Of a stretch of DNA of 11,858 nt, positions 1 through 11,453 are shown piece after piece. Location: the UHGV virus genome UHGV-0338394, one strand, 5' to 3'. The translations under genes were made by a program, and so were the position numbers. Position 1 is the stretch's first letter. Each line of letters begins with the position of its first letter. The notes below the pieces were generated by a model. That model saw only the letters and a list, made by a program, of their open reading frames with translations, made no database searches and was not told where the DNA came from. Source of the stretch: a virus.

Positions 1-40
1 CGGAATTATGAAAATTCCGGGGAGTTTTCTAATAATTCCG
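1..40. promoter_or_regulatory. Operator-like repeats upstream of alpA: palindrome CGGAATT-N5-AATTCCG (1-19) plus a third AATTCCG copy (34-40)
   Basis: Read directly: CGGAATT at 1-7 and its reverse complement AATTCCG at 13-19, with AATTCCG repeated at 34-40 (21 bp, about two helical turns, after the first copy). The palindrome may be truncated by the window edge. Position is upstream of alpA, where an int/alpA divergent control region is expected. Confidence 0.35.
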
Positions 41-69
41 ATACATTACAATCTATTGCTCCCATCATA

Positions 70-107
70 CCCGTAACGAAGCAACAACCATCAAAAGAGG
101 TTACGGG
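70..107 (+). promoter_or_regulatory. Inverted repeat CCCGTAAC-N22-GTTACGGG spanning the alpA ribosome-binding region
   Basis: Perfect 8-bp arms at 70-77 and 100-107. The purine-rich AAGAGG (95-100) lies at the junction and the alpA ATG is at 112. Could be a 5'-UTR hairpin or a protein operator. Confidence 0.3.
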
Positions 108-111
108 ACAT

Positions 112-330
112 ATGGCAACACATAACGCAACAACCCACACAATCCCCCAATCTGGCTATATCCGACGCTTCCGCCTTGCTGAATTGCTGGGCGTTAGCGT
201 TTCCACCATTGATCGCAAAGTTCGCAATGGGGTTCTGCCGCGCCCGGTAAAGCTGGGCGAGAAGATTACCGCCTTTGATGCGGTAGAGATTAACAACTGG
301 CTGGCAGAGCGTCGCGGGAAGGTGGCCTGA
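112..330 (+). CDS. alpA: AlpA/Vis-family excisionase-type transcriptional regulator (72 aa)
   Basis: Small protein with the AlpA-type HTH signature RLAELLGVSVSTIDRKVRNGVLPRPVKLGEKITAFDAVEINNWL. It is the first gene of a co-directional operon, as in CP4-57/P4-like elements and Gram-negative PICIs. Confidence 0.85.
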   Translation: MATHNATTHTIPQSGYIRRFRLAELLGVSVSTIDRKVRNGVLPRPVKLGEKITAFDAVEINNWLAERRGKVA

Positions 331-764
331 TGAAAAAAGAAAACCGCCCCGGACAGCAGGCGGCTAACATAGATATTCGCGGATCTGATGTTACGCCACC
401 AGCGCCCACCACACAAGCGCCACGCCGCACACCGAAGAAGCACCGCGCCCGCGTCTATATGCTACGCACTGGGGTAGAGGGATGGACAGAAAACGACATT
501 CTGCGCTACTGCCGCCTTTCGTCTGGAAGGAACTACGCCAGCGAGTTAGAACGCAGACTTGATATTCAGTTAGAGCGTATAGACGAAAAGAACCCCGACG
601 GGATAGGGTCACATTTACGCTATCGCTTTACCGGGCGCGGTGACGTTCTAAAAGTTATTCGGCTTGTGAACCATAACGCCGACGCTGGCGGCTATCAGGG
701 ACTTTCTCAGCCTGAAATTGCCGACATTCTCAATCTATACCCGGACAATTTCACCGCCGCCTAA
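330..764 (+). CDS. Hypothetical protein (144 aa), translationally coupled to alpA
   Basis: ATG overlaps the alpA stop (TGATG). Basic, Pro/Thr-rich N-terminus. No motif I can assign. Confidence 0.55.
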   Translation: MKKENRPGQQAANIDIRGSDVTPPAPTTQAPRRTPKKHRARVYMLRTGVEGWTENDILRYCRLSSGRNYASELERRLDIQLERIDEKNPDGIGSHLRYRFTGRGDVLKVIRLVNHNADAGGYQGLSQPEIADILNLYPDNFTAA

Positions 765-776
765 CGGAGACTGAAA

Positions 777-1610
777 ATGAACATCGAAAAAAGCAGATTA
801 ATTTCTGAGGCCGCCCCTCATCTGAACGCCTATCAGGGCACAATTAACGGTAATGAATTTGCCGCAATTGTCCCGGTTATTCCTGGTCATATCGGTGGGC
901 GTGAAACCAATATTGTTAGCGCAAAAGCGTTACACAAAGCGTTGGGCGTGGGAAAAGACTTCTCTACATGGATCACTGATCGCATCTCTGAATATGACTT
1001 CACCATTGGGCACGATTACTCAGTCCATAAAACTATTTCCCCAAATTTGGGGAAAAGCCCGAATGGCGCGGCTTACAGCAAGATTAAGCACTCTGGCAGA
1101 CCCGGCAAAGACTATCTGTTAAGTGTCGGAATGGCGAAAGAACTGGCAATGATCGAACGCACCGAACAGGGCCGCGCCGTTCGACGTTACTTCATTCAGT
1201 GTGAGGAAGCACTACAGCGCAGCGTGCCAGAGATTGCCGCTCAGTATCGCCGCCAGCTAAAAGCCCGTATCAGTGCCGCCAACCTGTTTAAGCCGATGTG
1301 CGCAGCACTTGAAAGCGCCCGCGCAGAACAGGGCAAACAGACACAGCAGCGCCACTACAGCAACGAGAGCAACATGATCGCCCGTATCGTGCTGGGTGGC
1401 ATGACGGCAAAGCAGTGGGCGCAGGCAAATGGCATTACTGGCGAACCACGGGACAGCATGAACGCAGCACAGCTTGAACACCTCGCCTATCTGGAAAGCA
1501 CCAATATCACGCTAATTGAGCTGGGGCAGGACTACCAGAAGCGCAAAGACGAGTTAATGCGCCTTTCACAGCGCTGGCTGGCGAAGCGTATGGGGGTAAA
1601 CCATGCGTAA
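777..1610 (+). CDS. Phage antirepressor-like protein (AntA-type N-terminal domain plus KilA-C-like C-terminal region), 277 aa
   Basis: GGAG ribosome-binding site 7 nt upstream of the ATG. The N-terminal segment SAKALHKALGVGKDFSTWITDRISEYDF and the central DYLLSVGMAKELAMIERTEQGRAVRRYFIQCEE match my recollection of AntA/KilA-C antirepressor signatures. Confidence 0.7.
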   Translation: MNIEKSRLISEAAPHLNAYQGTINGNEFAAIVPVIPGHIGGRETNIVSAKALHKALGVGKDFSTWITDRISEYDFTIGHDYSVHKTISPNLGKSPNGAAYSKIKHSGRPGKDYLLSVGMAKELAMIERTEQGRAVRRYFIQCEEALQRSVPEIAAQYRRQLKARISAANLFKPMCAALESARAEQGKQTQQRHYSNESNMIARIVLGGMTAKQWAQANGITGEPRDSMNAAQLEHLAYLESTNITLIELGQDYQKRKDELMRLSQRWLAKRMGVNHA

Positions 1611-1785
1611 CCATAATCCGATGCCGGGAAGCCGTTACAAGGATTCGCACGGGGCTGTAGTGACCGTACAGCGCGTCGAGCATAACCGCGTGACCTTTTA
1701 CCGCGAGGGCTATCAGTCGCCATGTGTTCAGCCTTTGGAGAGATTCGTTAAGGAGTTCGTGGAGGTGCGCCGTGATACTGAATGA
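1603..1785 (+). CDS. Small DUF4222-like protein (60 aa)
   Basis: ATG overlaps the upstream stop (ATGCGTAA). The pattern PGSRYKDSHGAVVTVQRVEHNRVTFYREGYQSPCVQPLERF resembles the small DUF4222 proteins common in enterobacterial P4-like prophages. Assigned from memory. Confidence 0.5.
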   Translation: MRNHNPMPGSRYKDSHGAVVTVQRVEHNRVTFYREGYQSPCVQPLERFVKEFVEVRRDTE

Positions 1786-2284
1786 ACCTGCCGCCCAGAA
1801 AGAAGCCTTTAATCTGGCTGGCATGTTGTCAAAAGTTGACATCTGCAACCTTACAAAACCTGATATTGATACCGCAGCGCCCGGAGTTCCGTTATCAGTA
1901 CGCGAGGCGCTTACCCTCAACAAAAAGATGGTGAGCCGTGCACAGGAAAAACTCTTAAAGGGTTACGGTTTTATCTGGTATGACCACCTAGCAGAGAAAA
2001 GCTGTTATAGTCCAAGCGTTGCTGCAAAATCAGCAACCGGGATTGGAACCCCGAACACACTAAGGGCGACACAGACGCCGAAAGCGTCTTTTTTTGCGTC
2101 CGATCACCACGCACATCAAATCAGCGGCCTTGCCCGTACTGTATCTATGGTGGCGTTAGTGGGGCTACGTTCGCGTAGGCCGGTTTCCTTTGTGTCCGGT
2201 AGTTCCAACCCTGCTAACGTCACCGCCACTATTAAGATTGGAACCTTATGCGGTGACTCCTTAAACACAAAGGAGGCTGCCATA
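1786..2284 (+). promoter_or_regulatory. Probable non-coding control region, with a P4-type RNA-immunity-like arrangement of short complementary motifs
   Basis: GATTGGAACC occurs at 2041-2050 and 2236-2245, and its near reverse complement GTTCCAACCC at 2202-2211 lies between them. A UUCG-tetraloop hairpin sits at 2165-2178 and an intrinsic terminator at 2073-2095. The only long ORF across the region (1724-2476) reads through that terminator and has a low-complexity middle section. Confidence 0.35.
2073..2095 (+). terminator. Rho-independent terminator (AGACGC-CGAAA-GCGTCT followed by a T-run)
   Basis: 6-bp GC-rich stem (2073-2078 pairing with 2084-2089), a 5-nt loop, and a 7-T run (2089-2095) whose first T also closes the stem. 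Confidence 0.6.
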
Positions 2285-2476
2285 ATGGCTACTACCCCTA
2301 CCCAAAAACCATCATTTATCTGGTTAATCGCAGCAGTTCGCCGCGATATGCCGACAATTACCGCCAAAATTCACCATATCGCCGCAGAGACTGAGCAGGA
2401 AGCCCGCCGCATTCTGGCGCGGGATCACGTTTGCTTTTTTGCCGGACGTATTCGCACAGGGGGCGCACATGCTTAA
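2285..2476 (+). CDS. Small hypothetical protein (63 aa), first gene of the operon leading to the primase
   Basis: Strong AAGGAGG ribosome-binding site at 2270-2276, 8 nt before the ATG at 2285. Lies immediately downstream of the putative control region. The start is chosen inside the longer ORF 1724-2476. Confidence 0.5.
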   Translation: MATTPTQKPSFIWLIAAVRRDMPTITAKIHHIAAETEQEARRILARDHVCFFAGRIRTGGAHA

Positions 2477-2648
2477 TTACTTCCGTGTTGCAGGATGCGC
2501 CACCGCCCGGAGCGGCGAATTAGTCGAGTTCGTTTATATCGTTGACGCCCGCAGCGCGATCAGCGCCAAAGCTGAGGCGCTAAATCAGGCCAGAAATGAA
2601 CGCCTTTCCCACATCCAGATTACCCGCGTTCGTGAGGTGGCGGCATGA
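2469..2648 (+). CDS. Small hypothetical protein (59 aa)
   Basis: AGGGGG ribosome-binding site at 2456-2461. ATG at 2469 overlaps the upstream stop (ATGCTTAA). Confidence 0.45.
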   Translation: MLNYFRVAGCATARSGELVEFVYIVDARSAISAKAEALNQARNERLSHIQITRVREVAA

Positions 2649-2959
2649 GCATGTATGACGATTTAGTGTCCTGCAAATTTGATGGTTGTACACCTGATGA
2701 TCTGAACGGAATTGAGAGCTGCGCCAGTGATGCCGTGGATGATTTAATGCTGGGCGTAAGTGCCATTGGTAGCCTCATGTTCTGGGCGGCTGGTAGCGAT
2801 GGCTACCCGGAGGAAAGCGCTAAGGCTGATATGTACAGATTAGGCGCAATGCTGGGACATATCGGAGAAGTTGCGCGGGCGCTGAACGATAGCGCTGCAA
2901 ACGCCGCATTCTTGCGCTCAATCAGTGAAAAAGAAGCCAAAGGGAGGGCGGGCAAATGA
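2645..2959 (+). CDS. Hypothetical acidic protein (104 aa)
   Basis: ATGA start/stop overlap with the upstream gene. Continuous + strand operon. Confidence 0.6.
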   Translation: MSMYDDLVSCKFDGCTPDDLNGIESCASDAVDDLMLGVSAIGSLMFWAAGSDGYPEESAKADMYRLGAMLGHIGEVARALNDSAANAAFLRSISEKEAKGRAGK

Positions 2960-3219
2960 ACATAACTACCATCTATCGCCACCCGGCAGAGCTGGAAGCC
3001 GAAGCGATGTTATCCCGCGAGCAGGCTTACCCGGATGATTTTACGCTGGCAGACCGAACGGCAGAACGCATGACCCGCGCCCGCAATGGGCTGGCTCACG
3101 TTATGACCGAATTAGCCCCGCACATGGACGCAGAGCAAACAGCAGCCGTCCAGTGCTGGCTGATGAAGGTTTTGGCTATTGTCGATGCCACCCTGATTGA
3201 TGCGGAGGGCAGCGCATGA
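2956..3219 (+). CDS. Hypothetical protein (87 aa)
   Basis: ATGA overlap with the upstream gene. Confidence 0.6.
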   Translation: MNITTIYRHPAELEAEAMLSREQAYPDDFTLADRTAERMTRARNGLAHVMTELAPHMDAEQTAAVQCWLMKVLAIVDATLIDAEGSA

Positions 3220-3842
3220 GCAACGCACCGACCATTAAATCGGGAAATGCCGACTTATTACACGCCGAAGCCACACCGCACGGCGTCAATATCATGACCC
3301 GCAATGATGCCGGGGGATATGAGCAGGTTGCTCTTATCAGCTACGAGAGCGCCGTGAACGGCCTTGACGCCGGAGAGTACGACGATAAGCCAGATATCGG
3401 ATACGCCATTCATTTTGCCGTTGCTGATGGCGGGGCGCGTGGCTGGTTCGACTTCACCGCGCAGCATAACGTCACTATGTGGCGCTGGCTGATTGCTGCG
3501 ACGTTCATTTCTGAGATGAAGCGCGAAAACGGCACAACCACGGTAACTGAGTCTGACGGCACTTCATCGCAGGTGGCGATTTACTCCAATGGCACGGCGG
3601 GGATTGTGGTTTACCCGTTCGCGGAACGTCTGGCGATGGCTAACAACATGGAGGGCGCAATGGTTGAGCGCTACGGCATTGAGCAGGGAACAGCGAACGC
3701 CATTGTTTTTTATCAGGCCATGATCGACACGGAGCGCGGCGAGTTGACCCCGTTCGGGCGTGAAACGCTTGCTGAACTTCACAACAGCTTTATAGCTGAA
3801 CTGGATGAAAACGGCTGGCCTGAAATGCCGCTGCCGCACTGA
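3216..3842 (+). CDS. Hypothetical protein (208 aa)
   Basis: ATGA overlap with the upstream gene. Long ORF with ordinary amino-acid composition. No motif I can assign. Confidence 0.65.
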   Translation: MSNAPTIKSGNADLLHAEATPHGVNIMTRNDAGGYEQVALISYESAVNGLDAGEYDDKPDIGYAIHFAVADGGARGWFDFTAQHNVTMWRWLIAATFISEMKRENGTTTVTESDGTSSQVAIYSNGTAGIVVYPFAERLAMANNMEGAMVERYGIEQGTANAIVFYQAMIDTERGELTPFGRETLAELHNSFIAELDENGWPEMPLPH

Positions 3843-3851
3843 GGGGGCGAC

Positions 3852-4193
3852 ATGATTACTAAAAATTTCCGACTGAATGCGCTGGCGAATAAGTATGCGT
3901 CGGCACTGTATAACCACATTACCTCCACCAGCGGCGGGGACTATTTCATGGTTGATGCGGACGGCCTCGCCGTCCGTGTGGAAATCGTCAATGGAGTAAA
4001 AGGCGTTCGCAGCCTGATCGATAGCTACACACTGGCAGCCATGAAAGTGTCCTACCCGCAGTGGGAAACCGTGGGGATAGAGATTCTTGATCGTTGCGTC
4101 ACTAATGACGGATTGACTGACGTCGGGCGTGAGATATGGCAAAGCATGGTTAAAGACATGGGCGCGACCGTGGCAGGGGGCAACCATGCGTAA
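3852..4193 (+). CDS. Hypothetical protein (113 aa)
   Basis: GAGGGGG ribosome-binding site upstream of the ATG at 3852. The stop overlaps the primase start. Confidence 0.65.
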   Translation: MITKNFRLNALANKYASALYNHITSTSGGDYFMVDADGLAVRVEIVNGVKGVRSLIDSYTLAAMKVSYPQWETVGIEILDRCVTNDGLTDVGREIWQSMVKDMGATVAGGNHA

Positions 4194-6627
4194 TATCGAC
4201 CTTATCCGCGAAGTGACCAGTGCCGCCGCCGGGCGCTGGCCTTATGTGCTGGCTGGATTGTCTATCGACGTGCCTGATTCATCGCGCCGCCATTCTCCAT
4301 GCCCTGCATGTGGTGGGAAAGACCGTTTCAGATTCGACGACAACGGGCGCGGTAGCTTTATCTGCAATCAGTGTGGCGCTGGTGACGGTTTAGACCTGAT
4401 TAAGAAGGTGAACAACTGCGACACCACAGAAGCGGCGAGGCTTGCCGCTGATGTGCTGGGTATTGATTACCGGGCAGCGCAAACCGACCCGGTGGCAGCG
4501 AGCCATAGAAGAGAGCAACTGGAAGCTGACCGCCAGCAGCGTGAGCAGGAGCGCCAGAAACAGGCAGCAGAGGATGCAGAGCAGCGAAGGGCTACGTTTG
4601 CCCGTCTGTATGCCGGAATGCGCCAGAGTGCCACACAGGGCGAATCTGATTACCTGCAATCAAAAGGGCTGACCGGGTTTAAATATCCGGTAATGCCGGA
4701 TGGTTCGTTATTGCTGGAGCTGGTGGACGAATCCGGCGCAGTGGCAGCAGCGCAAACCATTACACCGCAGGGAGAGAAGCGACTCCTGACAGGTTCAGCA
4801 AAGCGCGGGGCATATCACGCCGTAAACGCGCCAGAATCGCCGCAGAGCGTTTTAATTGCCGAGGGGCTGGCGACGGCCCTTTCAGTTCACCTGATGCGCC
4901 CGGACGCGCTGGCAGTGGCAGCAATTGACGCGGGCAACCTGCTACCCGTTGCCGAAGTGATGCGCCGGATATATCCAGCCACGCAGATTATCATTGCCGC
5001 AGATAACGACCACCAGCAGGACGAACAGGCGAACACGGGCAAAGATGCCGCAGAGAAAGCCGCCTTATCCGTGGCTGGCTGGGTGGCGCTGCCGCCGACA
5101 GACTACAAAGCCGACTGGGACGACTACCGCCAGCAAAACGGGCTGGAAGTCGCTACGGCTGCGTTTAACGATTCGATGTACCAGATTCAGGGGGAAGCCG
5201 TGAAACCACAACTACAGGCCATTGCGGGCGGTAAATCCCGCCGTAAAGCCGAAGTCGGAGATATTGCACAAATGGCAGCCAGCCAGAAAGCGCGGTTGCT
5301 TTCATCTCGCTGGGATATGTTGGCGGTCAACCCTGATAGTGGCGCTGTTTACTGCTACGAATCTGGCGTATGGGAGAAGCTACCAGACAGTGAATTAGAA
5401 AGGGTTATGGTGGCAATTTTCGACGAGCACGAAGCCCACTACACCGAAAAGGGGATTAAATCGGTTGTCGCAACCATGAAGCTGCAAATACCGGTAATTG
5501 GTGAGCGGAGCGGGGATCTGATTGGTTTTGATAACGGCGTTTATGACCTCGCCACGCAGACGTTTTCCGCCCATTCGCCGGGTAACTGGCTGATGAACCA
5601 CAATGGGATCACCTACACCCCGCCAGCGCCGGGGGAAAATATTACCACCAGCGCCCCCAATTTTACCCGTTGGCTGAATCATGCAACGGCTGGCGACCAT
5701 CATAAGGCCGAGCGTATCAAAGCAGCCTTGTTTATGGTGCTGGCGAAGCGTCACGACTGGCAGCTATTCATTGAGATAACTGGCGAGGGCGGCAGTGGGA
5801 AATCCGTATTCAGCAGCATAGCAACCACGCTGGCAGGTGAACACAACACCGCCAGCGGTAGCATGATGACGCTGGACACCGCACGGGGACGGGCGCAGTT
5901 CGTAGGGAAAAGCCTGATTATTATGCCTGACCAGACCCGCTACGTTGGAGAGGGTGCGGGGATTAAAGCCATTACGGGCGGCGATCCGGTAGAGATTGAT
6001 GGGAAATATGAAAAGCAGTTCACAACCGTGATAAATGCCGTTGTTATGGCAACCAATAACGAGCCGATGACATTCACGGAGCGAAACGGGGGCATTGCCC
6101 GCCGCCGCGTGATATTCCCGTTTAATAACCCGGTATCAGACGCAGACAAAGACCCGGATTTAACCGCAAAAATCAGGCGAGAAATCCCGGTGATTATCCG
6201 CCACCTGCTAACCACCTTTGCCGACCAGAACAAAGCAAAGGCACTATTACTAGAGCAGCGCGATTCGCAGGAGGCGCTAGAGGTTAAACGCGGCACGGAT
6301 CCGGTTGTCGATATGTGTGCGGCGCTTTTTTTCATGAACGAACCCAAAGGCATGATGATGGGCGGAGGTACATGGGCAGGCCAGCCAGAGCCGAGGACGT
6401 ATCTTTATCATCTTTATCTGGCGTTTATGGAGTATCACGGTTTGGGTAAACCGCTTTCCGTCAATAAGTTTTCACGCGCCATAAAATCAGCAGCAAAAGA
6501 GTACCGAGCCAGCTACCTGACGAGAAGCATTAACGGCAGAGCGCAAACCAACGTTGGCTATAACGAGAAGGCTGAGGAGTTCATGCCCCGTGCTTACGGT
6601 GTGGAGAGCGGGCAGAGTGATGATTGA
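4186..6627 (+). CDS. P4 alpha-type DNA primase-helicase (zinc ribbon, Toprim and SF3 helicase domains), 813 aa
   Basis: Start taken at ATG 4186 (AGGGGG site at 4175-4180) rather than 4129. Zinc ribbon CPACGGKDRFRFDDNGRGSFICNQCG, Toprim acidic residues (VLIAEGLATALS and IIIAADNDHQQDE), Walker A GEGGSGKS, Walker B-like SLIIMPDQ, and SF3 motif C VVMATNNEP. Confidence 0.9.
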   Translation: MRNIDLIREVTSAAAGRWPYVLAGLSIDVPDSSRRHSPCPACGGKDRFRFDDNGRGSFICNQCGAGDGLDLIKKVNNCDTTEAARLAADVLGIDYRAAQTDPVAASHRREQLEADRQQREQERQKQAAEDAEQRRATFARLYAGMRQSATQGESDYLQSKGLTGFKYPVMPDGSLLLELVDESGAVAAAQTITPQGEKRLLTGSAKRGAYHAVNAPESPQSVLIAEGLATALSVHLMRPDALAVAAIDAGNLLPVAEVMRRIYPATQIIIAADNDHQQDEQANTGKDAAEKAALSVAGWVALPPTDYKADWDDYRQQNGLEVATAAFNDSMYQIQGEAVKPQLQAIAGGKSRRKAEVGDIAQMAASQKARLLSSRWDMLAVNPDSGAVYCYESGVWEKLPDSELERVMVAIFDEHEAHYTEKGIKSVVATMKLQIPVIGERSGDLIGFDNGVYDLATQTFSAHSPGNWLMNHNGITYTPPAPGENITTSAPNFTRWLNHATAGDHHKAERIKAALFMVLAKRHDWQLFIEITGEGGSGKSVFSSIATTLAGEHNTASGSMMTLDTARGRAQFVGKSLIIMPDQTRYVGEGAGIKAITGGDPVEIDGKYEKQFTTVINAVVMATNNEPMTFTERNGGIARRRVIFPFNNPVSDADKDPDLTAKIRREIPVIIRHLLTTFADQNKAKALLLEQRDSQEALEVKRGTDPVVDMCAALFFMNEPKGMMMGGGTWAGQPEPRTYLYHLYLAFMEYHGLGKPLSVNKFSRAIKSAAKEYRASYLTRSINGRAQTNVGYNEKAEEFMPRAYGVESGQSDD

Positions 6628-6644
6628 AACTTTTACGGCGGCAC

Positions 6645-6893
6645 TTATCCCTACTGCCCTACTAAAAACGAGACGAGGCCAGACGTAGCAAGGCTTTAAA
6701 CTAGGTAGGGATATATATTTTTATCCCTACTTATCCCTACTTATCCCTACCAAATAAAACAGGCAGCAAAATGCCGTTGAAGTGATTTAGTAGGGATAAG
6801 TAGGGTTATGTAGGGCAACAAAATTGAATGCCTACCAGTCTGAAAGCCTTGCCATTCGTGGCCTGAGCCAGTTAGTAGGGATTGGTAGGGATA
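6645..6893. repeat. Iteron array, probably the replication origin: at least ten copies of TTATCCCTAC / GTAGGGATAA in both orientations
   Basis: Direct copies at 6645-6654, 6721-6730, 6731-6740 and 6741-6750 (a head-to-tail triplet). Inverted copies at 6704-6713, 6790-6799, 6800-6809, 6810-6816, 6875-6883 and 6884-6893. An A-rich spacer lies between the clusters. The array is immediately 3' of the primase gene, as ori/crr is in P4. Confidence 0.7.
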
Positions 6894-6945
6894 TTACACC
6901 CCCAAAAAGATTCTATGGGGGGGTAGCTTATAACGAAGGTGGGCA

Positions 6946-7248
6946 ATGAATACAGAAACCAGCCAGAAAATGACCTATCAGGAGCGTGAAGCATTGAAGG
7001 GGTTTACTGACAAACGCGCATTACAGGGCGACACCCAAAGCCTGCAAATGACCTTGAGGATGATCGCCCACTGGATGAGGCAGCCAGCAGAAATTGGATT
7101 TACAGAATATGCAACACACTGGACGGCAGCACAGGCCGGACGTGATGACGGGAATCACTCGACCGCAGCAATGGCGGAGCAGTGGCCTTTAAGGGAAGAA
7201 ATGAAAATTATCCCCGGAGGTAGTGACTACATGAGGAAATATCTATGA
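6946..7248 (+). CDS. Hypothetical protein (100 aa), first gene of the four-gene accessory operon
   Basis: GAAGGTGGG ribosome-binding site. The stop overlaps the next gene's ATG (ATGA). Confidence 0.6.
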   Translation: MNTETSQKMTYQEREALKGFTDKRALQGDTQSLQMTLRMIAHWMRQPAEIGFTEYATHWTAAQAGRDDGNHSTAAMAEQWPLREEMKIIPGGSDYMRKYL

Positions 7249-7706
7249 CAGCACAAATTTCAGCATACGGGCGGCTGGTGGCAGATCCCCAGACCCGTAC
7301 CACAGCAAACGGTACAAGCATGGCAATGGGCCGGTTAGCGGTGGCACTGCCCTGCCATGCAGCAGAGGGCGGAGAGGTTACTTTCTGGCTGGGCGTGGTG
7401 GCATTCGGCAAACAGGCCGACGCACTGGCAGGACACGTTAAAGGCGATTTAGTCAGTGTTGCCGGAGCGATGCAGATCAATCAGTGGACGGGCAAGGATG
7501 GCGGTACACAGCAAGGTTATCAGGTAGTAGCCGACAGCGTGATCAGCGCCAGAACGGTACGCCCCGGCGGGAAGCGGGCCGAATCAGTCAAAGCAAGCGG
7601 AGCCAGCAGGGGCCACACAACACAATCCGCGCCGGGATGGGAGTTATATAATACCCCTGATGATTTTGACCAACGCCCACCATTCGACGATGAAACGCCA
7701 TTCTGA
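7245..7706 (+). CDS. Single-stranded DNA-binding (SSB) family protein with an acidic C-terminal tail, 153 aa
   Basis: The OB-fold core aligns by eye with E. coli SSB ([15 protein letters not shown] against [38 protein letters not shown] against [33 protein letters not shown] against RKWTDQSGQ). The C-terminus FDDETPF resembles the SSB tail DFDDDIPF. Confidence 0.85.
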   Translation: [153 protein letters not shown]

Positions 7707-7716
7707 GAGGGAAGAT

Positions 7717-8361
7717 ATGAGTACGCAACCCATCATTATTGAGTTCGGCAGCTATCGCTGGCCCAGACATCTTGCAATACATGAAGCAGGTCATGCGATA
7801 GCCGCATGGTTGTTCGGCATACAGGAGGTAGAAATTGCGTTATCGGGTAATAACCGAGTGGCAAAAACCTACCTTAGAGGAGATGTTGATGAATGTGGAG
7901 CTGTAGCGGTATGGCAGCACGGCAACTATCCACGGAATGTGGCTGAGGTTAAGTCTTACAACCTCTCGAATGATGACACCAGGTTACGTCTGATAGACCA
8001 GGTATGCCGGGATATGGTTATCTCTCTAGCTGGTATCGTCGCGCAATCACGCTATACGGGGGATGATATTAACGCACTGATGGAAACGTCCGGGAAAGCA
8101 GACATGAAAAATGTTCGTGATTTATCAGAGGTATACCGGGTGGCTGGTGGAGAGGATGCTGATATACAGAGAATATCCCTTTCCCGTGCTGAGGCGCTGA
8201 TTGCCCTGAAATGGTGGGATGTTATCGCGCTGGCGAAAATACTGGAGAACCGTAACCATATGCCTGCCAGAAACTTCCAGCGCATTATGGGTGATATTGA
8301 CAAGCCTGTACCAAAGCCTATGACGCTGGCTGAACTGGATGAATTGGTGGGTGAAGAATGA
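7717..8361 (+). CDS. Stand-alone HExxH zinc metallopeptidase, FtsH (M41)-like motif HEAGHAI, no AAA+ module, 214 aa
   Basis: GAGGG ribosome-binding site 5 nt before the ATG at 7717. RHLAIHEAGHAIAAWLFG matches the FtsH active site TAYHEAGHAI. The downstream LAGIVAQSRYTGDDINALMETSGKAD resembles the M41 region carrying the third zinc ligand. No Walker motifs are present. Confidence 0.65.
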   Translation: MSTQPIIIEFGSYRWPRHLAIHEAGHAIAAWLFGIQEVEIALSGNNRVAKTYLRGDVDECGAVAVWQHGNYPRNVAEVKSYNLSNDDTRLRLIDQVCRDMVISLAGIVAQSRYTGDDINALMETSGKADMKNVRDLSEVYRVAGGEDADIQRISLSRAEALIALKWWDVIALAKILENRNHMPARNFQRIMGDIDKPVPKPMTLAELDELVGEE

Positions 8362-8708
8362 AGCCATACATTCTGGCAGCCGTCCTGATCTCATCGGCAC
8401 CGGCACTATCTGCTATCCATTGTGGGGGCTTTACCATACAGCCAGACCGTTATCGGACAACGATTAACGGCGATGTGGTTCATATTGTTGATGCGCAATT
8501 TTACGGCGCACCGCGAGACTTTAGCCAGGCCGCCATAAAGTTATTGCCGGATGCCATTACCACTACCGATAGGCAATACCGACTGGAGACGCAGGGAGGC
8601 AATGCCTTGCTTGAGTTGATGACCAGAGAAAACCCGCCACGTGTGCTTAATCGTGAGCGCTGCGATGCCGGGTTAACAAGATTCGGTTGGTACACTTCTG
8701 CGCCGTGA
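8358..8708 (+). CDS. Predicted secreted/periplasmic protein with an N-terminal signal peptide, 116 aa
   Basis: ATGA overlap with the peptidase gene. N-terminus MKPYILAAVLISSAPALSA has the form of a Sec signal peptide with an Ala-x-Ala cleavage site. Confidence 0.6.
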   Translation: MKPYILAAVLISSAPALSAIHCGGFTIQPDRYRTTINGDVVHIVDAQFYGAPRDFSQAAIKLLPDAITTTDRQYRLETQGGNALLELMTRENPPRVLNRERCDAGLTRFGWYTSAP

Positions 8709-8892
8709 TGTTCGTTCCGAGCGCAGCCTAAAATCAACGGCGTGACGCGGGCGATTCGCACCACAACCACACAGGGCGTCATAGAACGGGATAGACTTCT
8801 GCGACAATTTGCATTCGCCGCCAATATAGCAAGCCGTCCACATCAAGCAATAAACTATCACCGGGAGGGGGTAGTCAAATCTCTACAGCCCT

Positions 8893-8926
8893 GACTGTCC
8901 GGGACTGCCCGCCCCATCGTTTTTTT
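8893..8926 (+). terminator. Possible weak terminator after the four-gene operon
   Basis: GC-rich segment GTCCGGGACTGCCCGCCCC followed by a 7-T run (8920-8926). The stem is imperfect, and the T-run could instead pair with the downstream A-run. Confidence 0.25.
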
Positions 8927-8986
8927 ATACCCGCAAAAAATGAAATTTAATCCGGGCGTGTTTCATCCTTCCAGAGGGTATGACGT

Positions 8987-9172
8987 ATGACACCACGCGA
9001 AATAGCCTTATTGACCATCGCCAAACTTGAGCACGGAGGCCACCAGCTTACACAGGCAGATCAACGGGAGATAGAACGCTCAGTTAATGCCGATATAGCC
9101 CGGCGCGACAGGTTCCGCGAAATGATGCGAGCACCTGCCTACCAGTGGAAGAAGCCAGCGCCGCGCAGGTAG
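8987..9172 (+). CDS. Small hypothetical protein (61 aa)
   Basis: AGAGGG ribosome-binding site 8 nt upstream of the ATG. Charged, helical-looking sequence. Could be spurious. Confidence 0.4.
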   Translation: MTPREIALLTIAKLEHGGHQLTQADQREIERSVNADIARRDRFREMMRAPAYQWKKPAPRR

Positions 9173-9229
9173 ATATGGGATTATTCCACATGTAACTTAT
9201 GCGTATTAAGCAAATTTCCTTTATTCACC

Positions 9230-9259
9230 TTTACAGAATTGTGAGTACGTCAGTATCGT
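9230..9259 (+). promoter_or_regulatory. Candidate sigma70 promoter for the PRiA4_ORF3-like gene
   Basis: TTTACA at 9230-9235, an 18-bp spacer, and TATCGT at 9254-9259, in an AT-rich intergenic region. AGGA ribosome-binding site at 9284-9287 before the ATG at 9293. Confidence 0.3.
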
Positions 9260-9292
9260 TATCCTTCCGATTCGCATTTATTCAGGATTTGC

Positions 9293-9835
9293 ATGTACCA
9301 GCTAAAGATAACCATCCGAGACAGCAAACCACCTATATGGCGGCGTGTGCTGGTTCCAGAGCAAATCCCCTTTAGTAAACTTCATGCCGTGATCCAGTTA
9401 GCTTTTGGCTGGAATGACGAACACCTGTATATGTTCGAGAAAGGGCGTAAAGGTGATCCAGGTAGCGAGTATCACGTATGGGGTGAGGATGAAAGCATGG
9501 GTAACGCGGCAATCACGCCACTATGGGCGGCGCTCCAGAATGAGGGTGACAAGCTGGTTTATACGTATGACTTTGGCGACTGGTGGGATTGCGTCATTGT
9601 GCTGGAGAAGCAAACACACGATACGAGTAATCAGCCCATTAGCTGCCTGCGTGGGAAAGGCACCACCCCGGCGGAAAACTCAGGCGGCTTGCATGGTTAC
9701 AATGAATTGCTATTACAGGCCAGAGAGTCTGATAATCCTGAGCAGGCCGAGATCCACAATTTCCTGATGCTGGATATTGAACGCCGGGTTTACGACCTGA
9801 GCCGCATCAACGACAGATTGCAGGCTATTAACTGA
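9293..9835 (+). CDS. PRiA4_ORF3-like protein (plasmid pRiA4b ORF-3 family), 180 aa
   Basis: N-terminal signature LKITIRDSKPPIWRRVLVPEQIPFSKLHAVIQLAFGWNDEHLYMF matches my recollection of the family's PpIWRR...LH..IQ.aFgW..HLh.F pattern. Assigned from memory. Confidence 0.75.
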   Translation: MYQLKITIRDSKPPIWRRVLVPEQIPFSKLHAVIQLAFGWNDEHLYMFEKGRKGDPGSEYHVWGEDESMGNAAITPLWAALQNEGDKLVYTYDFGDWWDCVIVLEKQTHDTSNQPISCLRGKGTTPAENSGGLHGYNELLLQARESDNPEQAEIHNFLMLDIERRVYDLSRINDRLQAIN

Positions 9836-10187
9836 CCCGCATGTATTCACCTGATATTGCGTTATCAGCGCCGCCAGTATCGCGCATAACAGCGCACTGA
9901 CCTGGTAAACCGTAGCGCACGACCGTTGCGTTAGTTTCACCGCCGCGCCGTATCTGGCGCGATTCATACACTATCACCCGCTCAAGCAACCCACCAGCAA
10001 CCATGCTTTCCAGTGTGCGCCGGGTTGATTCGATCTGGTGGCGCTTATCGAACGACACCATGCCATGAAGCAGGTAGGCCACACCCGACACATCGAACGG
10101 CGGCGCACCAATCTCACCAGTCACCCATTCGAGGTTATCCGGTTCAAAGTAGCTAAGTATCTCTTTTTTGCGGCTGGTCATTCTCAT
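9828..10187 (-). CDS. Hypothetical protein, possibly a winged-helix DNA-binding protein (119 aa), convergent with and overlapping the PRiA4_ORF3-like gene
   Basis: Minus-strand ORF whose 3' end overlaps the 3' end of 9293-9835 by 8 nt. An AAGGAA ribosome-binding site lies upstream on the minus strand. The segment RRTLESMVAGGLLERV is reminiscent of a winged-helix recognition region, a weak inference. Confidence 0.55.
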   Translation of the reverse strand: MRMTSRKKEILSYFEPDNLEWVTGEIGAPPFDVSGVAYLLHGMVSFDKRHQIESTRRTLESMVAGGLLERVIVYESRQIRRGGETNATVVRYGLPGQCAVMRDTGGADNAISGEYMRVS

Positions 10188-10199
10188 GGCTGGCAGGTT

Positions 10200-10233
10200 C
10201 CTTATTGTGGGATAGCGGTATCATACAATAAGG
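10200..10233 (-). promoter_or_regulatory. Perfect 9-bp inverted repeat CCTTATTGT-N16-ACAATAAGG covering the ribosome-binding site of the minus-strand gene
   Basis: Arms at 10200-10208 and 10225-10233. On the minus-strand mRNA the AAGGAA site lies inside the proximal arm, 12-13 nt from the start codon at 10187. Confidence 0.4.
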
Positions 10234-10443
10234 CGCAAAAGATAAGAGGCCAGAACAGCAAGCATGAGAGCATAAAATGAGCAGCCAAAGACAGCACCTC
10301 AAAATACCGTGTACACAAGGGTGTACCTACTTAGAAAACGCATTACAAGGAATCCAGTAACCACGCAGCCTAGAGACTCCTACTCAATAAACAGATTCAA
10401 TTGAGTAACTCGTAACACTAATTCTTACTTTTCAGCCTTCACA

Positions 10444-10476
10444 AATGCCGCCCACTCAAACAGAGCGGCATTTTTC
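10444..10476 (+). terminator. Orphan intrinsic terminator-like hairpin (AATGCCGC-N13-GCGGCATT followed by TTT)
   Basis: 8-bp stem (10444-10451 pairing with 10465-10472), a 13-nt loop, and a 5-T run to 10475 that overlaps the stem end. No + strand ORF ends within about 600 bp upstream. Confidence 0.45.
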
Positions 10477-10565
10477 TTCCCCGCAACTTCAATTCTGTTT
10501 TGCGTGCCTGCTCCAGATTTTGCGATGTTTTTTTGCCCAGCACACTGAGAACGTGAGATACTCAA

Positions 10566-10585
10566 AACTGTATATAAATACAGTT
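10566..10585. promoter_or_regulatory. LexA (SOS) box of dinD
   Basis: AACTGTATATAAATACAGTT contains the CTGT-N8-ACAG core and matches the LexA operator of E. coli dinD as I remember it. It lies about 45 bp upstream of the dinD start. Confidence 0.85.
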
Positions 10586-10628
10586 ACAGATTTACTTTCT
10601 TTGCAATCGATATCACATGGAGTGGGCA

Positions 10629-11453
10629 ATGAACGAACATCATCAACCTTTTGAAGAAATACGGCATTATGGCACTGAAGGGCAAGAATTTTGGTCAGCT
10701 AGAGAATTGGCACCGTTACTGGATTATCGGGACTGGCGCAATTTTCAAAAGGTACTGGCCCGCGCGACTCAAGCGTGCGAAGCCAGCAATCAAGCTGCAT
10801 CTGACCATTTCGTTGAAACCACCAAAATGGTTGTATTAGGTTCAGGGGCTCAACGAGAACTTGAAGATGTTCATCTCTCCCGCTATGCCTGTTACCTGGT
10901 AGTACAAAACGGCGACCCTGCGAAACCGGTTATTGCGGCAGGGCAAACTTATTTTGCTATCCAGACCCGACGGCAGGAGCTGGCTGACGATGAAGCTTTC
11001 AGGCAACTTCGTGAAGACGAAAAGCGTCTTTTTCTGAGAAATGAATTGAAAGAACATAACAAACAATTGGTTGAGGCAGCGCAGCAAGCTGGGGGAGCGA
11101 CAGCTATCGATTTCGCCATATTTCAGAATCATGGTTACCGGGGGCTGTATGGTGGATTAGATCAGAAAGCTATTCATCAGCGGAAGGGGCTGAAAAAGAA
11201 TCAGAAGATCCTGGATCATATGGGTTCAACAGAACTGGCGGCTAATCTCTTTCGAGCTACCCAAACAGAAGAAAAACTCAAGCGGGATGGCGTGAATTCA
11301 AAACAGCAAGCAAACACCACACACTTTGACGTGGGTCGCAAGGTGAGGCAAACCATTCAGGAACTTGGCGGAACCATGCCTGAGGAGTTGCCGACCCCGC
11401 AGGTCAGCATCAAGCAGTTGGAAAACAGTGTAAAAATTACAGAGAAGAAATAG
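10629..11453 (+). CDS. dinD: DNA damage-inducible protein D (274 aa)
   Basis: Translation beginning MNEHHQPFEEIRHYGTEGQEFWSARELAPLLDYRDW matches my recollection of E. coli DinD. GGAG ribosome-binding site 6 nt before the ATG at 10629, which I prefer to the ORF-track start at 10617. The LexA box lies immediately upstream. Confidence 0.88.
   Translation: MNEHHQPFEEIRHYGTEGQEFWSARELAPLLDYRDWRNFQKVLARATQACEASNQAASDHFVETTKMVVLGSGAQRELEDVHLSRYACYLVVQNGDPAKPVIAAGQTYFAIQTRRQELADDEAFRQLREDEKRLFLRNELKEHNKQLVEAAQQAGGATAIDFAIFQNHGYRGLYGGLDQKAIHQRKGLKKNQKILDHMGSTELAANLFRATQTEEKLKRDGVNSKQQANTTHFDVGRKVRQTIQELGGTMPEELPTPQVSIKQLENSVKITEKK

Follow-up and report, generated by a model that had tools for sequence, protein, structure and literature searches.

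A Shortened Core in the Right Attachment Site of a PICI-Type Island at the 3′ End of yicC

Introduction

Attachment at yicC–dinD has already been published, and the junction described here is in itself of a known type. EcCIRM13514 (11.9 kb) was listed at this position with the core GAGCAGATTCAA (Fillol-Salom et al. 2018, PMC6092414, Table S1), induced phage DNA of O157:H7 strains has yielded a 15,957-bp element that had its insertion site at yicC (PMC4587872), and yicC_dinD is among the prophage sites recorded for O157 clade 8 (PMC9997748). The present work concerns positions 10188–10628 of UHGV virus genome UHGV-0338394, a sequence of 11,858 nt that we call the window and to which all coordinates refer unless another record is named. 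We consider it about 90% probable that this stretch is the right attachment site (attR) of a ≈12 kb island of the type of the phage-inducible chromosomal islands (PICIs), which was inserted in the last 21 nt of yicC via a P4-type tyrosine integrase and whose attR core was shortened in situ after integration. The new point is the core, which lacks 4 bp, one of a series of recurrent small deletions that start beside the inferred crossover.

EcCIRM13514 resembles the window island in its target at the yicC 3′ end, its unidirectional int–alpA–primase–SSB layout, its GTGTAC arm repeats and its AGATTCA core. Its size of 11.9 kb is that of the relative of the window island in strain NH-21, and the integrases of these two are 85% identical. 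The attR of EcCIRM13514 is also short, by 2 bp, compared to 4 bp in the window. The two islands differ in most of their gene content, with only short stretches at 68–71% identity shared outside the flank, and in the island-borne yicC end, which is AAAATGTGGAGTAA in EcCIRM13514.

The attachment sites of λ and P4 have the same parts as the site in the window, namely a P arm, a C site, a 7-bp overlap, a B′ site and arm-type repeats in both arms, together with an integrase that carries an N-terminal arm-binding domain, and P4, like the window island, carries a second copy of the 3′ end of its target, which keeps the gene whole. The window target is protein-coding, however, not a tRNA gene, and while attR in λ and P4 is the precise product of recombination, B′ is eroded in most copies of the yicC islands. 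PICIs that target fis and hpt (PMC10111431) likewise have the 3′ end of a protein-coding gene as their target and bring a replacement end, but their attL/attR identity blocks are reported to be strongly conserved, unlike those of the yicC set. A preprint from the Williams group (10.1101/2022.07.18.500453) described the “attB drift” of the yicC PICIs as extreme, with non-overlapping identity blocks, perhaps reflecting mutations near the crossover. This sentence is absent from the published version (PMC10111431), where the blocks of the fis PICIs are reported to be well conserved.

Position of the Junction

When 10188–10628 was compared by megablast to 5426 complete Escherichia coli genomes, 4710 of them had a match, yet the whole stretch was present in only 63. 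Apart from these ≈63 island carriers, the matching genomes align only from about window position 10400 on, and yicC is annotated under the left end of the match. In ≈77% of the complete genomes, window 1–10399 is absent and yicC is joined directly to 10400 onward. These ≈4182 empty sites have an uninterrupted attB, whose two flanks abut precisely where the junction was proposed. The end of the island is at about 10399, with chromosomal DNA from 10400 on. Because island-free genomes match only from about 10400, the DNA between 9293 and 10399 belongs to the island and not to the chromosome. In K-12, dinD begins 220 bp downstream of the end of yicC, and these 220 bp correspond to the native yicC–dinD intergenic region at 10409–10628 (plus strand), which is contiguous with yicC in K-12 and ≈4180 other genomes. 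The closest match for the stretch was strain NH-21, in which yicC is followed by a tyrosine integrase gene, then by ≈11.9 kb of island genes and finally by dinD.

These alignments bear out the main proposals of a first-pass annotation made from the letters of the window, which had seen an element–chromosome junction in this AT-rich stretch (42.9% G+C, compared to 52.0% for the whole window), had put attR within 10300–10443, and had suggested a non-tRNA target, possibly the 3′ end of whichever gene stands before dinD in uninterrupted genomes. That gene is yicC, the breakpoint against island-free E. coli falls at 10399/10400, so that 9293–10399 is not contiguous with dinD, and the inferred crossover segment (10393–10399, see below) lies within the proposed interval. 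No tRNA or tmRNA gene was found by ARAGORN.

The first-pass annotation had also noted a terminator-like hairpin with no upstream plus-strand gene to terminate, and had taken it for the displaced 3′ flank of the integration target. The hairpin (10443–10476, plus strand) has stems AAATGCCGC (10443–10451) and GCGGCATTT (10465–10473) of 9 bp, enclosing a 13-nt loop and followed by TTTTT. It folds at −12.4 kcal/mol (z = −3.85), which was equalled by none of 200 shuffled sequences, and was missed by a consensus terminator scan, whose limit is exceeded by the 13-nt loop. In the empty-site genomes, including K-12, it is found 34 nt past the yicC stop codon. By its fold and position, the hairpin appears to be the intrinsic terminator of yicC itself, displaced by ≈12 kb, and in its present place it may insulate dinD from rightward transcription of the island.

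The Core of attR Is Shortened

attL and the integrase gene were read in relatives of the window island, not in its own genome. In these relatives, attL carries the 21-nt repeat CAGATTCAGAATATCGAGTAA. The first-pass annotation had expected a direct repeat shared by the two ends of the element; such a repeat exists, in that the 21-nt copy is present at attL of the relatives, but in the window it survives only as CAGATTCA and ATTGAGTAA, 8 and 9 nt long, with 4 nt missing between them. The empty site reads CAGATTCAGAATATTGAGTAACTCGTAACACT, and the expected clean product of integration is CAGATTCA GAATATTGAGTAA CTCG, which is the empty-site allele of the window’s flank type. The window reads CAGATTCA ATTGAGTAA CTCG; the four nucleotides GAAT were lost between 10399 and 10400. 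In strain LWY24, an island with an arm identical to that of the window has an attR of full length.

The length of attR was surveyed in 49 E. coli genomes with an attR aligned by BLAST to 10341–10440. In 42 of the 49 (≈86%), attR was short by 2–11 nt, and in seven it was of full length. A shortfall of 2 nt was the most frequent (n = 26), followed by 4 and 11 nt (n = 4 each), 7 nt (n = 3), 9 nt (n = 2) and 3, 5 and 8 nt (n = 1 each). Many of these genomes are clonally related, so the counts represent copies rather than events, and one representative of each length class was read. In every representative, the arm and CAGATTC(A) were intact and the loss lay directly to the right. Metagenome contigs showed the same tendency, with 17 of 18 attR copies short and one of full length, while one of three prophage contigs in IMG/VR was of full length. 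The pattern scans of metagenome and viral sequences demanded an intact CAGATTC and CTCGTAAC, a bias from which the BLAST-based E. coli set is free.

Nearly all of the 42 short E. coli copies consist of CAGATTCA and a suffix of the host sequence. The combined table of 38 sequences holds five full-length sites and 14 distinct shortened cores, a series in which the host suffix after CAGATTCA becomes ever shorter. A single deletion can account for 11 alleles, of which nine fit a left boundary directly after CAGATTCA; four alleles require two steps. The exception, CAGATTCAGA followed by CTCG, occurs with both flank types.

Strain E7 (L017 401–720) has an island right end with the −4 core CAGATTCAATTGAGTAA, followed directly by ≈250 bp of unrelated sequence and then yicG, while the yicC terminator and dinD are missing. 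The E7 breakpoint falls exactly after TAA, and the match of GPEC673 and GPEC1258 is confined to the same portion of the query.

attL and the Integrity of yicC

attL of this island family was found in 378 of the 5426 genomes (≈7%). It was of full length in all six copies read, and among the 60 attL matches listed, none was shorter than the query. Fifteen records were 100% identical to the attL of NH-21; those that were also in the attR survey had attR spans ranging from 93 to 102 nt.

The yicC end that the island contributes at attL is synonymous (CAG ATT CAG AAT ATC GAG TAA, compared to AAC ATC GAA TAA in K-12) and includes a stop codon, leaving the YicC protein unchanged; the identical YicC protein accession is annotated in occupied and in empty genomes. 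The island also brings a new terminator, GCCCGC...GCGGGCTTTTTT, with a folding energy of −15 kcal/mol. The integrase gene, which lies outside the window, adjoins yicC in NH-21, B2C, E67, CT29, 19-5 and RM13514 and encodes Arm-DNA-bind_3 and Phage_integrase domains; a Phage_int_M domain is also found in the integrases of the relatives. In NH-21, the annotation gives the integrase 20 additional N-terminal residues (L001 8444–8503), whose codons cover the arm-type repeats. Judged by the conserved start MPKLTDMQIRAWIK and by where the Pfam domain lies, its true start would seem to be at 8504.

Architecture of the Attachment Site

The P arm (10293–10392, plus strand) is conserved in all islands of the yicC integrase clade. 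Divergent islands match from query position 106, which corresponds to window 10293, and eight arm variants, some of them very divergent, could be aligned ungapped over 132 nt. The only block besides the core that is invariant among these variants, GTGTACA.A.G.GTGTAC, has a fixed location at −84 to −67 from the overlap and contains two GTGTAC direct repeats 12 bp apart (10309–10326, plus strand). This is where the first-pass annotation had seen a dyad, GTACAC-AAGG-GTGTAC. The dyad is indeed present at 10311–10326, but since several of the eight variants have a broken symmetry (GTACAT...GTGTAC) and yet retain the direct repeat, the block is better read as direct repeats. A role of the dyad as a terminator or structured RNA was rejected, because its folding energy of −6.6 kcal/mol is unexceptional (z ≈ −0.4) and it has no Rfam match. 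Four similar repeats are found in the other arm (P′), between the island-borne terminator and int, and the integrase of the relatives carries the Arm-DNA-bind_3 domain. The GTGTAC repeats are thus good candidates for arm-type integrase sites.

A second, less regular repeat is found within the P arm, where CCTACTTAGAAAACGCATT (10326–10344) and CCTACTCAATAAACAGATT (10379–10397) are 74% identical, giving a degenerate copy of the core-proximal sequence 53 bp upstream of it. This copy could represent an extra protein-binding site.

The core is framed by a perfect 8-nt inverted repeat, TACTCAAT (10381–10388) and ATTGAGTA (10400–10407). In the intact site, the two octamers are spaced by 4 nt, AGATTCA and another 4 nt, with AGATTCA at the center. 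The same register is seen in a third arm family, where ACTAAATATTC is the mirror of GAATATCGAGT in 9 of 11 positions. From this inverted repeat, we assign a putative island-side core-type site C to TACTCAATAAAC (10381–10392, plus strand). On the other side, ATTGAGTAA (10400–10408, plus strand) is the remnant of the chromosomal core site B′ and comprises the last 9 nt of the original yicC, including its stop codon (10406–10408).

The AGATTCA segment between these sites (10393–10399, plus strand) is presumably the 7-bp overlap within which strands are exchanged. CAGATTCA is the only identity to attB that is common to all attP families; the window family diverges to the left of it and EcCIRM13514 to the right. 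Strain 2017.15.02CC has a K-12-type flank, and from the next variable position on, its attL has island-type bases while its attR has host-type bases. In general, the variable attR bases to the right of CAGATTCA track the type of the host flank and not that of the arm. The crossover is placed in CAGATTCA because of the shared attB identity and this switch between island- and host-type bases to its right.

The Deletions Arise After Integration

Two pairs of near-clonal strains show the site in the course of changing. Across 22,768 nt of flanks and island, only two single-nucleotide polymorphisms (SNPs) and one 5-bp indel, CAGATTCA(ATATT)GAGTAA, separate strain 19-5 (swine, China) from 39EVA (human, Singapore). 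Across 22,897 nt, three SNPs and one 3-bp indel, CAGATTCAA(TAT)TGAGTAA, separate QDFD216 (dog, China) from 50EVAW (human, Singapore). In each pair, the sole indel falls within the same 13–14-nt target, for which the probability by chance is ≈6 in 10,000 per pair. Since the only indel in ≈23 kb hits this target in both pairs, the attR core is a hypermutable site, and its erosion is progressive. The deletions thus arise in situ, after integration.

Synthetic queries that carried a −4 or −2 scar did not reveal any scarred empty site in the 5426 genomes; the best matches were intact sites aligned with a gap of 4 or 2 nt. The possibility that the deletion pre-existed in the host or was left behind by excision was therefore rejected. 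One attP-type junction was found, on contig IMGVR_UViG_3300022181_000034, which joins the P arm, the full 21-nt core, the P′ arm and int, and could represent a circle, a concatemer or a tandem array. No attP junctions beyond this single contig were found in IMG/VR.

Gene Content of the Island

Pfam and PHROG scans of 19 window open reading frames (ORFs) and of dinD identified an AlpA-type regulator (112–330), AntA (777–1610), an Ash/Icd-like protein (1724–2476), a primase-helicase (4129–6627), SSB (7245–7706) and a PRiA4_ORF3 protein (9293–9835), all on the plus strand. All of these genes point rightward, and only the last ORF, of 119 aa, is transcribed leftward. The scans, which left several ORFs without an assignment, found no capsid, tail, terminase or lysis families. 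This is the gene organization of the PICIs of Gram-negative bacteria, a type of phage satellite, and the 11.9 kb of the NH-21 island fall within their size range of ≈10–15 kb. In contrast to P4, there was no family match for sid, psu or delta among the scanned ORFs (P4-type cos sites and plasmid-state functions were not searched for), and the P4-like traits of the island are limited to the types of its integrase and primase. No GenBank phage record was found with the arm, and the GTDB representatives, with one genome per species, contained no attR of the yicC-island type.

Rfam identified a C4 antisense RNA (82 bits), isrK and the c4 a1/b1 target element at 2005–2230 (plus strand), inside or just upstream of the Ash/Icd-like ORF. 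Together, this RNA set and the ORF constitute a c4–icd–ant immunity module of the P1/P7 type on a PICI-type island.

Features Flanking the Attachment Site

The last island gene is the 119-aa ORF (9828–10187, minus strand), which forms the left boundary of the ORF-free stretch. It has no match in Pfam or PHROG. It is annotated as hypothetical and is conserved beside attR in NH-21, CT29, 19-5 and other strains, as well as in the attP-type contig (L036). The sequence from 10188 to 10292 is common only to islands that have this ORF, while two islands with other cargo (L003 and L004) are similar only from 10293; 10188–10292 (minus strand) therefore belongs to the leftward ORF as its leader or upstream region. 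Just upstream of the ORF start, it contains an inverted repeat, CCTTATTGTGGGATA and TATCATACAATAAGG (10200–10233), of 15 nt with 87% complementarity and a 4-nt spacer, which could be an operator or a leader hairpin of the 119-aa ORF. No sigma-70 promoter consensus was found in the stretch for either this ORF or dinD, and no Rfam family was found in 10100–10700 at E ≤ 1.

The first-pass description of the stretch as having stops in all frames holds only approximately. ORFs that lie wholly inside it do not exceed 46 aa, but ORFs of 69 and 80 aa cross its ends. The 46-aa ORF (10425–10565, minus strand) is called as the hypothetical protein WP_000028342.1 in some RefSeq genomes; it spans the yicC terminator and the region upstream of dinD, and is probably a spurious call. 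In 2017.15.02CC, an IS3-family element (L005 15523–16736) has inserted past the full-length attR, in the interval from the yicC terminator region to dinD.

The LexA (SOS) box of dinD, AACTGTATATAAATACAGTT (10566–10585, plus strand), was correctly placed by the first-pass annotation. It is an exact match to CTGT-N8-ACAG and is identical in K-12, with its core, CTGTATATAAATACAG (10568–10583), 46 nt upstream of dinD. The dinD gene (10629–11453, plus strand) encodes an intact protein of 274 aa with a Bro-N domain, in agreement with the RefSeq annotation at the homologous position. It is also intact in other island-bearing strains, but is annotated as a pseudogene, with an internal stop or frameshift, in island-bearing NH-21, B2C, CT29 and RM13514 (L001 20442–21266, L003 20330–21154, L006 15435–16259 and L046 12827–13649).

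Discussion

We propose that the integrase itself made the deletions, through faulty cleavage and religation. As a tentative reading, repeated misfiring of the enzyme at the boundary between the overlap and B′ would remove 2–11 nt on the chromosomal side only, progressively disabling excision and locking the satellite in the chromosome. In such a process, the integrase would bind the GTGTAC repeats via its arm-binding domain and the inverted core sites TACTCAATAAAC and GAATATYGAGTA at the crossover, exchanging strands within AGATTCA. The protomer bound at B′ would cut the bottom strand at the boundary between AGATTCA and the following G. By the chemistry of the tyrosine recombinases, the enzyme would be left on the 3′ end of the B′ side, and failed or mis-registered religation would strip nucleotides from B′ only and spare the overlap, matching the observed pattern. 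The proposed reason for the one-sided loss is thus that the cleaving enzyme stays attached to B′. In the window, the octamer ATTGAGTA is now 4 bp too near the overlap, and a protomer bound there would be out of register. Since this shift misplaces B′ relative to the cleavage point, excision of the window island is probably impaired.

Type IB topoisomerases make short (2–5 bp) deletions by sequential cleavage, as established in yeast. The likeness lies in the 3′-phosphotyrosyl intermediate and in short, one-sided deletions that are anchored at a recurring cleavage site. This is an analogy only, as the losses at the yicC attR reach 11 bp and lie outside tandem repeats.

Several points weigh against the reading of the stretch as an attR that was shortened in place by its integrase. 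The same −2 and −4 alleles are found with several diverged arms, which calls for either recurrent identical events or transmissibility, the latter being uneasy to combine with a dead-end site. The frequent allele CAGATTCAGA followed by CTCG begins 1–2 nt rightward of the shared boundary, and there are alleles that require two steps. The intactness of attL could result from selection on yicC instead of from an asymmetric mechanism. The pattern scans are blind to deletions that extend leftward or further rightward, and the E. coli set is represented by one sequence per length class. The arm does not contain the IHF consensus WATCAANNNNTTR, for which there was no match with ≤1 mismatch in 10188–10440. 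Finally, attL and int are known from relatives only; the best genome match to the window has 93% coverage at 98.1% identity, and the window island is a mosaic.

The alternative that survives best, although we consider it unlikely, is that the deletions are replication errors. Slippage or quasi-palindrome correction around TACTCAAT...ATTGAGTA would produce deletions in situ, selection would favor islands that no longer excise, and attL would be spared by the coding function of yicC, which it overlaps. Where the host flank is of the ACACT type, perfect palindromes do result, TCAATATTGA from the −2 allele and TCAATTGA from the −4 allele: in the window, the 4-bp loss creates TCAATTGA at 10397–10404, while the commoner 2-bp loss creates TCAATATTGA in hosts of the same flank type. 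Furthermore, ATAT is a dinucleotide repeat, and immobilized elements would be expected to persist in genomes. However, the same −2 loss is also found in hosts with the K-12-type TCAGAACATCGA, where no palindrome is gained, and with arms that have no inverted repeat, and hairpin or palindrome slippage was rejected as a general cause because it does not fit these hosts and arms without symmetry. Random mutation followed by selection should also strike the overlap, the C site, the arm repeats and int, all of which were intact in every copy read, while the observed deletions are nested, one-sided and start from one boundary. Nor is erosion the general fate of attR in PICIs, given that strongly conserved identity blocks were reported for those that target fis (PMC10111431). 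Replication error therefore fits less well than loss driven by the integrase.

A second alternative, which we find highly improbable, is that there was no deletion at all and that island lineages differ in their native attP cores and in the identity block used for crossover (here ATTGAGTAA), giving rise to the “attB drift”. The drift of identity blocks noted in the preprint for the yicC PICIs (10.1101/2022.07.18.500453) is in line with this idea, as are the two published att cores, GAGCAGATTCAA and ATCGAGTAAG, which do not overlap, the occurrence of the −4 allele with at least three diverged arms, and the 9-nt attL/attR identity ATYGAGTAA that exists here. Against it, an arm identical to that of the window yields a full-length attR in LWY24, and to the right of CAGATTCA the attR bases follow the host flank while those of attL are island-type. 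The −11 alleles keep no right-hand identity, each of the two near-clonal pairs has its single indel at the attR core, and the one attP-type junction found carries the full core. The published cores are instead two pieces, left and right, of a single 21-nt core divided by the attR deletions, which explains the “attB drift” of the yicC PICIs. That the stretch is ordinary chromosomal DNA upstream of dinD, with the distal genes (9293–10187) as core genes, has practically no probability, as only the absence of a tRNA gene speaks for it and it is refuted by the lack of 1–10399 in ≈77% of the complete E. coli genomes and the presence of 10188–10399 in just 63–65.

The junction fixes the boundary of the island, assigns dinD with its SOS box to the native chromosome and shows yicC to be intact. 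The chromosomal half-core of attR is shortened in ≈86% of the sampled E. coli copies and is still changing between near-clonal strains. If the integrase causes these losses, they represent a natural mutational footprint of a tyrosine recombinase and a simple explanation of why many satellites of the yicC clade may be stuck. They would also be a warning for tools that set island ends by the identity blocks of attL and attR, because the published att cores at yicC are two non-overlapping halves of one 21-nt core. If misfiring is indeed the cause, it would constitute a self-inflicted, site-specific route to the domestication of a mobile element and would account for the “attB drift”, and the strand-cleavage position of an unstudied integrase would have been marked by genome data alone.

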